Assembly (NCBI GenBank): GCA_000002445.1
Contig: CM000208.1
Span: 608,001-672,000, forward strand
Direction of reading: 5' to 3'
Origin: Trypanosoma brucei
Taxonomy: Eukaryota
DNA: 64,000 nucleotides
Below, in pieces: positions 52,101 to 58,100 of this stretch. A program made the position numbers. Each line of letters begins with the position of its first letter. Positions within the stretch are counted from its first letter, which is position 1.

Positions 52101-55100
52101 TTACTTGCACGGGCGGTGGCGGATGCCACTCGCGGCCCGGACTGTACCAATGGCTTCTTGCTGAACGATTTTCCCAAAACGGCTGAGCAAGCGCGACACC
52201 TTAAAGCGGAGGGTATAGAACCAGATGCCATCGTCGTGCTTAGTGTTCCTGATAGTTTGTTGGTTGACCGTCATGCGGGGCGATGGGTGCATCCCAGTTC
52301 GGGTCGCGTGTACCACACCTTTTACAATCCCCCTAATGTTAAGGGGCGTGACGATGTTACTGGGCAACCGCTGGTGCAGCGACCAGAAGACACGGAGGAG
52401 GCTGTACACCAGGGGCTTGTGAAGTATTACGAGAGTATTAGAGGACTTCGCGCCGTATACGGTGACCCTAGACTTTGGCACACCGTTGACGGTTTTGCTT
52501 CCCTAGATAGTGTACACGTCTCTATATGTCGTGTGTTGGATCCTATTATTGCAGACAAGACACGTCGATGGTGGTCCAAGTTGTTTTGGTGGTCAAGTTG
52601 AACCTTCCTTATCTACCATTGCTTTAAGGGCACTGTGCGCTGCATTGCTGTATCGCTGCTATAAGGGTTGCTCAGCTTTTAATCTTTGCTGGTTCACCAC
52701 AGCTCTTTCTGTGCGCACGTGTGTGCATCATACTTGAGTTTCCTTTGGTTTTCGCATCTCTTGTCCCGTGTTGCATTTTTACATCGATTATTCTTACTTT
52801 ACCTGTTGGGTGTATGGTTAAGCACGCTGTGCTATAGGTAAGAAAGCCGAAGCGAATACTGAGGGAGGTTAGGGGATGGTAATTTTCTTTGGTCGAGCAC
52901 AAACCAGGCGAGTGACTGGAAAAGTAGTTGTGTTCGGTGCAACAACCAATGTAGGCAAGCACCTTTCACTACTACTAACTCTTTCTCCGCAGGTCAAGGA
53001 ACTGTGCTGTTTTGACCCGCTAAATGACGTCACACTTCGTATGACGGAGACACGTGTCCGCGGGATTGTGAAGGACCTCTCACATATCGATACTGGTGTT
53101 GTTTTGAGAGCTGTTGATGACCCGCAGCAGTGGGAACCAGCCATGAGGAACGCACAGTTGGTGCTTATCTGCACTGGCAGCATTCCCAACCCGAGTCGTC
53201 TGCAACGTGACCTTGCACTCGCGGAGTGTGCACCAGAGTATCTCGTTGCGATGGAATTAGTGGCCAGGGCAGCTCCCCACGCCATCGTTGGTATCGCTTC
53301 TGGTCCTGTTAACTCCTTAGTGCCGTTAGCGAGAGAGGTGCTTCTGCGACACAGTGCATTTGACCCACGCAAGCTTTTTGGCATAACTTCACGTGATGTT
53401 ATGCGAACGCGGGTTCTTTTTGCAAAGGAACTGCACATGAACCCTTACGATGTGAATGTGCATGTTGTAGGTGGAAAAGGTGATGCTACTGTTTGTCCAC
53501 TGATTACACAGACGGGATTCCAACTGCCACATCAGCGAATGGTACAGCTCTGCGAGGAGGTCCAACGTCCTGAGAATTTTACAGCAGGCGACCACAACTC
53601 CACGGGGTGTCGCGTTGACAGCCAAAACGTTCAAGGCCAAGAAAAGTTTACGTGCCCCACCTTGTCGACTGCAAACGCAGCATATGAATGGGTCACTTCG
53701 ATAATGAAGGCACAACGTGGAGACCGTGGCATTACCGAGTGCTCTTTTGTAGAATCTTCGATAAAGAGAGAGACGCCTTTTTTCAGCTCGCGCGTTGAAC
53801 TTGGTGAGGAGGGCGCTGCGCAGCTTTTACCATTGGGTGCTTTGACACCGTATGAGGAGGAACTTGTGGCAGCTGCTGTGCCGCTGATTGTGGAAGATGT
53901 TGAAGCTGGTTTGCGTTTATCCAAGACAGGGGTAGATGCAGTTTCATGAGACCCAGCGCTGTGAGTCTTTTCTCTCTTGTTGTGATTAATATCGAAATGT
54001 TGTTTAGTAGCGCTCGTTGGTTAACTTGTACACTTTTTTCTAATAGGGGAGCAAAAGTTATTGCAACTCTTATTTGTTCTTGGCGATCTAGTTCTATCCG
54101 TTTCTGTGCTCGCCTCCGTGTGTATAGGTTTGCGTGTGTTTGATAGCCGCTTGTTTTTTCTTGTCGCTTGCTTATACTTCCTTACACTTTACTTTACTGC
54201 TAATGCTAATGCTCTTGACACTACTAAAGTGATAACAAAACAACAAGGTCAAGCATTAGTGACATTAATTTAATATTGAAGCGAACAGAGGTGTACACGT
54301 ACACTTCCCTATCACTTGGCATTTTCTCTCAAGAGAGGAAATTGCAGCGATCATAATAAGGTTCAAAGAAGAAAATATTTACAACCGATATGCGTACCAG
54401 TGCAACTCTCCAGTTTAAAGTTGCCGTCCTCGGTGCTGCCGGTGGTATTGGTCAACCGTTATCGCTTATCCTGAAAACCAATCCTCTTGTGTCTCACTTG
54501 AGTTGTTATGACATACATGGTGTGACAGGCGTGGCTGCAGACCTCTCGCACATTTGTTCTCCAGCTAAGGTGACTGGTCACCTGAAAGATGAACTTCACA
54601 AAGCAGTTGACGGAGCTGACGTTGTCATCATCCCCGCGGGCACACCGCGAAAGCCGGGGATGACTCGCGAAGATCTCTTCAGTGTTAATGCAACGATCGT
54701 TCGAGACCTCGTATCGGCTTGTGCAAAACAATGCCCCAAGGCTCTTATCGGTGTTGTTTCCAACCCTGTCAACAGTGTTGTACCTATTGCTTCGGAGGTG
54801 CTCAAAAAGGCTGGTGTCTTTGACCCTGCTCGCCTCTTTGGCATAACCACGCTTGATGTGGTGAGAGCTCGAACATTTGTGGCTGAGGCCGCTGGTAAGA
54901 GTCCGTATGACGTTAATGTTCAGGTGGTGGGTGGACACAGTGGTCCGACTATTATTCCATTATTATCTCAAGCTGGTGTATCATTGACGGAGGAACAAGT
55001 CAAGGCTATAACGCGACGAGTGCAGTATGGCGGTGACGAAGTTGTGAAAGCTAAAGGAGGGGCGGGTTCAGCAACTCTTTCAATGGCGTACGCCGCTGGG

Positions 55101-58100
55101 GAATGGATGTCCTCCGTGTTGAAAGGGCTTCGTGGTGACAAGGGTATCGTGGAGTGTACGTATGTTCAGACGGATATTATTCCCGGCGTGAACTTTTTCG
55201 GTTGCCCGGTGGAACTTGGGAAAGGTGGCGTTGAAAAGATTCACAAACCTGTGTTTGACGCGTATGAACAGAGTCTTTTGGAGAAATGTGTTGCGGACTT
55301 GGAGAAAAATATCGCAGCAGGTTTTGCCTTCGGTTCCAGACAGTGAACAAAAGGAATTAAAAATCGTTATTTTGTAGAAATGAGCAATAGCATTCTTTCA
55401 TATTGTCCTCAAAAACGCACTTTTTTTTTTGCTGAAATGGCGTTCAAACACACAGAATTGGCTACAAATCTCCAAGGATGGTATGGTATTAATTATCTCT
55501 GCTGAAACTGCCGGTGAATTGAACCAACTGACACTGTGACGCTTGGTCCACGTGTGGTCTAGCATGTGTTTCTAAGAGTGTATGTGGATGTAGAATGAAT
55601 AATTGAGGGGTTTGTTAACTTACAGTGTTTTATTTCCTCCCTCACTGCATAGCAGGGTGCACGAAAGCCTAGGAGAGCAGGGTGCCTGACATTTATATGT
55701 CCTTATGCATGTCTGGCAGTGATGCTTATGGGTGCACCACGGGGCATTTCTTATTTTTATCGATATCGTTTTTTTTCTTTTTTTCTTTTTTTCTTTTCTT
55801 CTTTTCATTTAGCGTTTGAGGGTGATGGTGTACTTCCCCGCGATTTCGGTTACAGGTCTTCTTACCTTTCTCTCCTTCTTTTTGCTACTGCTGTAGTTGT
55901 GCTGTCTCCAAACGTTTAAATGTTTTTCTTCGTTTATCACTCCTATATCTGTATATACGTCTGTGTGAGTATGTACGTGTGCGCAATTATTGATTGACTA
56001 TTTTAGTAAAGGCATATATGCTCACACTTGGGATGCATACGCTTCAGCTCCTATCCCTGATTCTTTATTTTGCTGCTACTGTTTTCGTGCCGGCGCTGAA
56101 GGTTCCATCAAAAGCCGTTGTGCACCTCGTGGCACATACACACAGTGATTTGGGATGGCTCAAAACCGTTGACCAGTATACTTACGGGTTGAATAACAGT
56201 ATTCAGTTTGCCGATGTGACCACCATTATCAACAGCGTTGTGGAGGGACTACTGGCAAATCCAGAAAGGAAGTTCACTTACGTTGAAATCGGTTTTTTCT
56301 CGAGGTGGTGGTCAAGACAATCAGTGAGCATGCGGGAAAAGGTCCGTGGGTTGGTCGCCAATGGTCAACTGCAATTTGCCAACGGTGGTTGGTGTATGCA
56401 TGACGAAGCCACTACACACTATATTGATATGATCGACCAAACGACGCTTGGCCACCGATGGTTACTGCGGGAACTTAATGTGGTACCGCTTGTTGGATGG
56501 CAAGCCGATGCATTTGGGCATAGTGCCACACAAGCATCGCTGTTGACGTCGCGTGCTGGTTTCAATGGAACCTTTTTCGCCCGCATTGACTACCGTGAGT
56601 ATGAGGATCGTGTGAAGCGAGGGGGACGGCAGTTCTGGTGGGACGCTAGTCCGTCGCTACCTGACCTGAAAACATTTGCTGAGGCGAACCTGCACGCGAC
56701 CTATTGCTCAGCAGCGGGGTACAAATGGGATCTTGCTGATCAGTTAGAGAGTGCACGGACATTCACTCAAGCGGATGATATTATTGACGATAATGCGTCC
56801 GAGCGGTACAATGTTCCAGTTGTTCTTAAGCATTTCAAGGATGAGGTAGCTAGGAGTTTGCAGGCCACGCGTGGTGCGAACGTCATGTGGACGATGGGAT
56901 GTGACTTCACTTATATGGTGAGCGAGTTTTGGTTCGGCAAGATGGACAAATTAATCAAAATTGCCAATGATGATGGTGAGTTTACTGTGCGTTATTCCAC
57001 GCCGTACGAATATATGATGGCGAAGCTGGATGAGGCTGTGAATGCGAAAATCAAATATGAGACGAGCACGGGCGATTTCTTCCCGTATGCAAGTGCCGCT
57101 CACGAGTTTTGGACGGGATTTTACTCATCTCGACCGACTTTGAAGCGACTAATACGGATGTTAAGCAGTTATTGGGTTGCGTCCCGGCAGTTGCAATTCC
57201 TTGCAGGTGTGCCATCCGGTGATCTGCCACTTCTGAGCGATGCGCTCGCCATTGCACAACATCATGACGCGGTAACGGGAACGGCGCGGCAACACGTAAC
57301 ATTTGATTACGTCAAACGACTTGTGGCTGGATATAATGATGATTTCTCAGTTCGGCTTCGTACCGCACTTACTGGAAGATTGTTTAACCTCAGTAACGTA
57401 AGTCACTGTTTGCTGTCTAATGTGTCTGCATGCGACGCCACCGCCACTGGACTAGCAAAAAAAGGATCAAAACTGACGGTGATGGTATGGAATCCGAGTG
57501 TCCACCCAAATGTGAATACCTTTCTTCAAATACCCGTTCCACGAAGGGATATCAGAGTAGAGGGTAACGGCGTGAAGTCCTTTTCTGTCTATGGTTCACC
57601 CACTCAGGTAAGTGATTATTCCAATGTCAATGCGAATTGGCAACCATATACAATTGGGATAATTCTTTCGTTGGGGAAAACCTCCTCTCTTACTCTGAGC
57701 ACACCGGGGAAGTATGATATTCCACGGAAAGAATCACATGTCGGATATTCGCTGAAGAGTGTGGTATCCCGTGATAGGCGTGGAGGTTTTACGCTGACGA
57801 GTGACCATCTCAAGGTGCGTTTCGGGGTGAACGGGCGGCTAAAAAGCATTGAGGTATTGTCTGTTGGACAAGAGGTGTTGGTGGAGCATGATTGGTGTTA
57901 TTTCAAGAGCAGTAGAGGGGAAGACCCGAGTGGTATATCTGGTGGGGCGTACATAATGCGTCCTGTCTCTGATAATGTTTGTGAACCGATTAGCACCGAT
58001 AAAGTCGAGAGTATTATCATTGATGAGACGATTGGTATTGTGGAGCAAAGGTTCGGAAACGACCTCGTACAGCGAGTCATTCTTCACGGGGATACGGTGG

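Follow-up and report, generated by a model that had tools for sequence, protein, structure and literature searches.

The aromatic L-2-hydroxyacid dehydrogenase (AHADH) of Trypanosoma cruzi belongs to the cytosolic malate dehydrogenase (MDH) lineage and is an active dehydrogenase linked to nicotinamide adenine dinucleotide (NAD), with changed specificity. Trypanosomatids also show an unusual tendency to employ dead paralogues as regulators, and in plants a plastidial NAD-MDH is found in large non-metabolic complexes, namely the Ycf2-FtsHi motor (8xku) and BAM1-LSF1-MDH (8j5d). For T. brucei itself, a 2024 review of protozoan MDHs counts three MDH isoforms. Here we describe a stretch of 64,000 nucleotides of T. 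brucei DNA (assembly GCA_000002445.1, contig CM000208.1, forward-strand positions 608,001 to 672,000; hereafter the window, to which all positions refer), in which two MDH-family genes are arranged in tandem. The downstream gene, Tb927.10.2560, encodes the canonical mitochondrial MDH (mMDH). The upstream gene, Tb927.10.2550, here called pseudo-MDH, appears to encode a fourth, dead MDH paralogue. Its product is present in both life stages, and the gene is conserved among trypanosomatids that cause disease in humans.

The explanation that we prefer, and to which we give an even chance, is that the upstream gene codes for an MDH-fold pseudoenzyme, catalytically dead and imported into the mitochondrion, which arose by tandem duplication of the mMDH gene, and that it most likely serves as a non-catalytic accessory of the respiratory chain. 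The gene is already annotated, its product has been detected and probably already bears a name, and the inference of inactivity is routine. The interest lies in what the protein may do: if it regulates mMDH or is part of the divergent cytochrome c oxidase, it would be a parasite-specific component of mitochondrial energy metabolism.

Active site and fold of the upstream gene product

The two open reading frames (ORFs) are located on the same strand, 440 bp apart (Table 1), and their products are 35% identical (BLASTP, E=4e-49). Both are above the Pfam thresholds for Ldh_1_N (PF00056) and Ldh_1_C (PF02866), so the tandem MDH pair that the initial annotation placed at 52876-55346 is confirmed. 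The upstream product scores 46.3 bits for Ldh_1_N (cut-off 27) and 46.0 bits for Ldh_1_C (cut-off 22.6), and its Ldh_1_N score of about 46 bits is to be compared with 150 bits for mMDH, in which every catalytic motif is intact. The predicted masses of both products, together with that of the product of the preceding gene (25.656 kDa), agree in every digit with those published for Tb927.10.2550, Tb927.10.2560 and Tb927.10.2540, the last being the adenylate kinase that precedes the MDH pair. The window is therefore from chromosome 10 of T. brucei brucei TREU927, and the upstream ORF is the already annotated gene Tb927.10.2550.

In the initial annotation the upstream copy was described as having lost its catalytic His, with GGHSG changed to GGKGD. 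This is borne out by the alignment, in which GGHSG of mMDH is matched to GGKGD without gaps and with conserved flanks on both sides (DVNVxVVGG and T..PL), in the same register whether the neighbouring mMDH or the watermelon glyoxysomal MDH (1smk) is taken for comparison. No other His takes the catalytic position. H196 was considered as a substitute and rejected, being specific for T. brucei (Pro elsewhere) and located five residues upstream on the strand.

Across 18 members of the pseudo-MDH clade, five catalytic or cofactor positions of MDH are replaced, i.e. the middle Gly of the dinucleotide-binding motif and the equivalents of E. coli D34 (kept in T. brucei), R81, N119 and H177. The middle Gly of GxxGxxG is T, S or N throughout the clade, and the D34 equivalent is acidic in T. 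brucei only, with G, S or N in the other orthologues. In place of R81, T. brucei has Pro and most orthologues have Phe, with V also seen, and the N119 equivalent is G, S or T across the clade. The R87 equivalent is kept in most clade members, in T. brucei with a shift of one residue, while the Asp and Arg of the ITxxDxxR block are largely preserved: the D150 equivalent is present in all 18 members and the R153 equivalent in all but T. congolense. The retention of these two residues was thus read correctly in the initial annotation. Its further claim that the substrate-loop arginines are retained is right for the R87 equivalent and wrong for that of R81, and its claim of a retained Rossmann fold is right for the fold as such, whereas the NAD-binding motif has become GATTNVG and the Asn of SNPVN has become Gly.

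Judged by these residues, the predicted protein departs from a competent MDH in four defining features. Since the His, the middle Gly and the equivalents of R81, N119 and, outside T. brucei, D34 are lost, NAD-dependent 2-hydroxyacid chemistry is very unlikely, and on sequence grounds an ordinary NAD-dependent MDH is ruled out. Of the two outcomes foreseen in the initial annotation, an inactive pseudo-dehydrogenase or a neofunctionalised enzyme, the former is well supported by this clade-wide loss of cofactor and catalytic residues.

By domain and by fold, pseudo-MDH belongs to the superfamily of lactate dehydrogenase (LDH) and MDH. Its AlphaFold2 model (predicted local distance difference test, pLDDT, 79; predicted template modelling score 0.82) has the mitochondrial-type MDH fold, and the top Foldseek matches of the model are all MDHs, the best one being pig mMDH 1mld (E=1.7e-26, template modelling scores 0.79/0.90). 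In MDHs, helices alpha-B and alpha-C form much of the dimer interface. When the clade consensus is compared with the kinetoplastid mMDH consensus, alpha-C is 90% identical and the alpha-B region 70%.

The insertion of about 60 residues after the former His, which the initial annotation described as containing Cys, is smaller than was claimed. It is a loop of 26 residues (aa 234-259) that takes the place of about 11-17 canonical residues and so adds about 15 net, and the whole difference in length between pseudo-MDH and mMDH is 39 aa, to which about 10 aa after beta-2 and about 6 at the N-terminus also contribute. Nor is the Cys in this insertion conserved, the column identity within the clade being 0.38 and the length varying between species, up to about 95 aa in a deep-branching orthologue described below. 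Clade-specific Cys residues are located in the segment made up of the end of beta-2 and the variable insertion there (53005..53061).

Table 1. Features of the tandem MDH locus, with positions in the window.
Feature	Position	Strand	Remarks
CDS (coding sequence) of the putative MDH-fold pseudoenzyme	52876..53949	+	357 aa, 38.998 kDa; Tb927.10.2550, 'malate dehydrogenase-related'
N-terminal presequence-like segment MVIFFGRAQTRRVTG	52876..52920	+	clade consensus M.fF.Rr; conserved across orthologues
Degenerate dinucleotide-binding motif GATTNVG (canonical GAAGGIG)	52936..52956	+	first and third Gly kept, middle Gly lost
End of beta-2 and lineage-variable insertion CCFDPLNDVTLRMTETRVR	53005..53061	+	from site comparison of orthologues
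Remodelled active-site loop GSIPNPSRLQRDL	53176..53214	+	new clade consensus fDp.R..Rd
SGPVNS (canonical SNPVNS)	53299..53316	+	substrate-contacting Asn (E. coli N119 equivalent) lost, replaced by Gly
ITSRDVMR block	53383..53406	+	Asp (D150 equivalent, D174) and Arg (R153 equivalent, R177) retained
GGKGD at the catalytic-His position	53470..53484	+	K201, codon AAA 53476-53478; clade consensus GGRGG
Variable, predicted-disordered insertion, aa 234-259	53575..53652	+	pLDDT <50; replaces canonical segment
CDS of canonical mMDH	54390..55346	+	318 aa, 33.188 kDa; Tb927.10.2560

Orthologues, age of the duplication and selection

Orthologues of pseudo-MDH were found by homologue search in T. congolense, T. 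vivax, T. cruzi, T. rangeli, T. conorhini, T. grayi, T. theileri and T. melophagium, and further in Strigomonas, Porcisia, Leishmania, Leptomonas and Novymonas. Most of them have Arg at the position of the former His (GGRGG), T. vivax has Gly (GGGGG), and Lys is found in T. brucei and T. equiperdum. Arg is encoded by CGT in L. mexicana and by AGA in T. theileri and T. melophagium, and Lys by AAA in both T. brucei and T. equiperdum; these codons are single-step changes from each other and from those of His (CAY). Lys201 is a T. brucei variant of a clade-wide switch from His to Arg, and the emphasis of the initial annotation on a change from His to Lys, while correct for T. brucei, was too narrow. 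The same annotation had named orthologues that retain the His as a sign of sequencing error. None was seen, except in a single divergent lineage, where other essential residues are missing.

In an exhaustive profile hidden Markov model search of 1.8 billion representatives, the three clade representatives scored 584, 526 and 350 bits, compared with at most 231 bits for canonical MDHs. The pseudo-MDH clade is monophyletic in a neighbour-joining tree (bootstrap 100/100), with an internal topology that mirrors the species tree. The gene order, two adenylate kinase genes (ADK) followed by those of pseudo-MDH and mMDH, is common to T. brucei/equiperdum, T. theileri, T. melophagium and L. mexicana. 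Since the clade tree follows the species, and the gene order is common to Trypanosoma and Leishmania, the duplication is older than the trypanosomatid radiation.

The third representative in the profile search, P0031, is a deep-branching orthologue of 461 aa from a kinetoplastid (Logan run DRR495436, L004 998-2383), encoded upstream of a canonical mMDH that is 62-66% identical to both Trypanosoma and Leishmania mMDHs. It has two Ser/Thr/Ala-rich, low-complexity insertions of about 40 and 95 aa, and it is the divergent lineage that keeps the His (GGHGG), although the middle Gly and the equivalents of R81, N119 and R153 are missing. Because the His is kept here while other essential residues have been lost, the loss of the His is one inactivating change among several and need not have come first.

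The gene is under purifying selection, about 2.6 times looser than that on mMDH. Between T. theileri and T. melophagium, with dS much alike for all of these genes, the ratio of nonsynonymous to synonymous substitution rates (dN/dS) is 0.20 for pseudo-MDH, against 0.078 for mMDH and 0.06-0.08 for both adenylate kinases, and the corresponding ratio for polymorphisms (pN/pS) of pseudo-MDH within T. brucei is 0.18. Private changes at otherwise invariant positions are most numerous in T. brucei and T. congolense. Conservation within the clade is highest in the former His strand (aa 196-210, PVVGGRGG.TaCPLi), with a mean column identity of 0.91; next come ITxxDxxR (0.86), alpha-C (0.85) and the alpha-B region (0.82). 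The active-site loop and the pocket hold a cluster of positions that are fixed differently in the mMDH and pseudo-MDH groups (Y>C46, P>C99, R>F104, K>D105, G>R108, N>S143, H>R201 and S>G202). To judge from this pattern, the former active site is not drifting but has taken on a new consensus that is held under constraint.

The idea of a partial second copy of the pseudo-MDH gene elsewhere in the window was considered and rejected. Two further MDH-like proteins were seen in the course of the comparison. In L. mexicana (FR799586.1, L002 14199-15194) a third MDH-family gene is located downstream of the pair, where T. brucei has an alpha-mannosidase gene; its 331-aa product has an intact GGHSG and is 48% identical to T. 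brucei mMDH. The other, P0034, is an N-terminally partial protein of 271 aa from a JGI metagenome contig and is also a degenerate mitochondrial-type MDH-like protein, with GGHCDAT, ISNSINYT, a loop from which the R87 equivalent is missing, and a deletion within the GGDEVV segment. Its grouping with the pseudo-MDH clade is weak (41%).

Proposed role and its alternatives

The localisation data, whose review was proposed in the initial annotation, indicate an imported mitochondrial protein (Peikert 2017 supplement). In that supplement Tb927.10.2550 is detected by mass spectrometry with 11-14 peptides and up to 59.9% coverage, is TargetP-positive, and has an abundance ratio of 0.27 on RNA interference against ATOM40, in which the outer-membrane import pore is depleted. 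The protein is detected in procyclic proteomes and in 4/6 bloodstream-form proteomes (Zikova 2017 S1), and mMDH is likewise mitochondrial (Peikert 2017, Zikova 2017). In a reference table of Peikert 2017, the column 'Respiratome' (Acestor 2011) is ticked for Tb927.10.2550 and not for mMDH. In Hammond 2020, 'COXTB16 / cytochrome c oxidase euglenozoa-specific subunit 16' is assigned to an MDH-like Euglena transcript, with Tb927.10.2550 as the listed T. brucei relative. Taken together, the tick and this mapping make it likely that Tb927.10.2550 is COXTB16, and we consider it probably identical with this proposed kinetoplastid subunit of complex IV.

These observations can be brought together as follows. 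The gene of the mitochondrial MDH would have been duplicated in tandem before the trypanosomatid radiation, and one copy would then have lost the features for NAD(H) binding and for hydride and proton transfer while keeping the fold, the almost unchanged dimer-interface helices and the carboxylate-binding Arg and Asp. We infer that such a protein still dimerises, and that its remodelled, positively charged pocket may hold an anionic metabolite or a partner protein rather than catalyse, with Asp174 probably paired with Arg/Lys201 in place of the Asp-His dyad. Given its place in the 'respiratome' and its probable identity with COXTB16, both taken from proteomic compilations, the role would be that of a non-catalytic accessory or peripheral protein of the respiratory chain. 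A comparative hint in favour of this role comes from Phytomonas, which is without complexes III and IV: in Phytomonas sp. EM1 (HF955062.1, L007 7755-13423) no remnant of pseudo-MDH was found by tblastn in the syntenic ADK-mMDH-Nop25 interval. This absence covers one streamlined genome and the syntenic locus only, and for that reason the hint of a joint loss is weak.

Several points weigh against such a role. Complex IV is essentially absent in bloodstream forms, in which the Tb927.10.2550 protein is detected. A sequence search of the PDB returned only ordinary MDH and LDH chains, with 1smk as the best (9e-44), and since no PDB chain is closer than these generic MDHs, pseudo-MDH is in no solved complex. 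COXTB16 was undetected in purified Euglena complex IV. The link to the respiratory chain is second-hand, as it comes from proteomic compilations (Peikert 2017, Hammond 2020). The mapping in the latter is at the level of orthogroups, Tb927.10.2550 being assigned also to an ordinary Euglena MDH transcript, and Zikova 2017 files the protein under core metabolism and not under the electron-transport complexes. Full-text literature searches returned no functional study of Tb927.10.2550. Finally, dimerisation is suggested by the conserved helices, and some residual or new activity of the protein may be possible.

Some of the same evidence would also suit a protein that acts on its neighbour. In this alternative, which we regard as unlikely, the dead paralogue would behave like a prozyme and heterodimerise with the adjacent mMDH through the conserved interface, and would thereby modulate the activity, stability or location of mMDH. 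The interface helices alpha-B and alpha-C, near-identical in consensus to those of kinetoplastid mMDH, would permit such a dimer, the two proteins share the mitochondrial compartment, and the former active site appears constrained rather than decaying. Trypanosomatids are described in the literature as making repeated use of dead paralogues as activators, i.e. for AdoMetDC, deoxyhypusine synthase and PRMT1. The two genes have been adjacent since before the Trypanosoma/Leishmania split, but adjacency in the polycistronic genomes of trypanosomatids need not mean co-regulation. The mMDH moreover has a complete site, and the recombinant T. brucei enzyme is reportedly active alone, unlike the crippled catalytic partners of the known prozymes. 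It is also retained in Phytomonas without the paralogue, and because Phytomonas keeps it under these circumstances, mMDH does not need pseudo-MDH.

A new function within the pocket itself seems quite improbable to us. Here the Arg-rich, Cys-lined pocket would carry out other chemistry, or act as a sensor for a di- or tricarboxylate or some other cofactor, with no NAD-dependent hydride transfer involved. This would agree with a site consensus (GGRGG, fDp.R..Rd, SSPVNA) that is conserved as much as or more than the rest of the protein, with the retained carboxylate-binding Arg and Asp, and with the clade-specific conserved cysteines C45/46, C99 and C207 around the old NAD cleft. Set against it are the Gly of T. 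vivax and the Lys of T. brucei, the latter with two further changes in the same strand, from which it follows that the His position tolerates variation, as well as the loss of the R153 equivalent in the deep-branching P0031. Such a function would also be unprecedented in the superfamily, and no enzyme of the LDH/MDH superfamily is known to function in the absence of the His-Asp dyad and NAD(P). As to a decaying pseudogene, or an artefact of sequencing or assembly, we give it next to no credence. The rate of evolution, about 2.6 times that of mMDH, and the abundance of private changes in T. brucei and T. congolense at otherwise invariant positions would be expected of decay, but all the species examined have an intact ORF with the same substitutions, dN/dS is 0.2, the protein is covered up to 59.9% by mass spectrometry, and the T. 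equiperdum assembly carries the same Lys codon. Pseudogene and sequencing error alike are thus effectively refuted by the conservation of the gene, the selection on it and the detection of its product in proteomes.

A more far-reaching proposal, which we hold to be unlikely, can also be formulated. The dead MDH, dimerised with itself or with mMDH, would tether or tune malate/oxaloacetate metabolism at cytochrome c oxidase by way of its Arg-rich, Cys-lined site, to which a dicarboxylate or a partner would bind. If this were true, pseudo-MDH would stand for a new class of trypanosomatid pseudoenzyme and would connect reactions of the tricarboxylic acid cycle type with the respiratory chain, as a metabolite sensor or a scaffold, and Phytomonas would have lost this link along with complexes III and IV.

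Neighbouring sequence and comparison with known systems

Directly upstream of the MDH pair the window has two adenylate kinase paralogues in tandem, at 49223-49891 (222 aa) and 51912-52601 (229 aa), and this tandem arrangement is also kept in T. equiperdum, T. theileri, T. melophagium and L. mexicana. The locus of Phytomonas sp. EM1 is also without the alpha-mannosidase of T. brucei, of which tblastn gave no remnant there. Further away, the region at about 23100-29300 of the window looks like a divergent strand-switch region between polycistronic units: ORFs of at least 200 aa are on the minus strand at about 11.9-23.1 kb and on the plus strand from 29.3 kb on, and the skew of G over C (GC skew) flips sign there.

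The segment around mMDH differs in the T. equiperdum assembly (CM010681.1, L003 8001-16759, corresponding to 53740-60500 of the window), where a tandem segmental duplication of about 6.7 kb has amplified mMDH; the window has a single unit. In T. equiperdum Nop25 is chimeric, with aa 1-191 from Nop25 and the last 68 aa from the C-terminus of pseudo-MDH, joined at an 'ESSI' microhomology, and it is followed by mMDH, the same chimera and mMDH again. Between the mMDH of the window and the first T. equiperdum copy there are 10 aa differences, 5 of them in aa 232-240 (M232T, A235I, A236T, G237A and M240T), and the pN/pS of mMDH in this comparison is 0.36, which is above the value of pseudo-MDH. The cluster at aa 232-240 may reflect gene conversion among the amplified copies.

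Among described proteins, the mitochondrial NAD-MDHs (Tb927.10.2560, pig 1mld and E. coli 1emd) are closest to pseudo-MDH, as they have the same fold, the same two Pfam domains, the alpha-B and alpha-C helices and the Asp and Arg of ITxxDxxR, and Tb927.10.2560 also has the same mitochondrial location. Pseudo-MDH differs from them in lacking the middle Gly and the equivalents of R81, N119 and H177, in most orthologues also that of D34, in its insertions after beta-2 and at aa 234-259, and in evolving 2-3 times faster. AHADH is likewise an MDH-derived trypanosomatid paralogue that no longer acts as an MDH (2024 review table). The analogy with the aromatic 2-hydroxyacid dehydrogenases that was drawn in the initial annotation is nevertheless a poor fit, as pseudo-MDH is of the mitochondrial type, with a gutted site from which cofactor and catalytic residues have been lost.

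The trypanosomatid prozymes (AdoMetDC, deoxyhypusine synthase, PRMT1) are similar in being dead, conserved paralogues of metabolic enzymes in which the oligomerisation surface is retained. In contrast to them, a heteromer and an activation of the partner are conjectural here, the putative active partner mMDH has a complete active site, and the mMDH of Phytomonas occurs without a dead copy. COXTB16 (Perez 2014 nomenclature) is probably the same protein, an identity drawn from two compilations, although its Euglena 'orthologue' may simply be the canonical MDH.

The plastidial NAD-MDH of plants, of the same mitochondrial/plastid-type subfamily, differs in that the plant protein is still complete and active and can be regarded as moonlighting, whereas in pseudo-MDH the catalytic apparatus appears to be gone and membership of a complex is suggested by proteomic lists only. 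Its complexes 8xku and 8j5d are among the best structural matches of pseudo-MDH and provide a precedent for an MDH-fold scaffold. Should pseudo-MDH indeed be a regulator of mMDH or a part of cytochrome c oxidase, it would cleanly illustrate how the MDH fold can be recycled as a scaffold.

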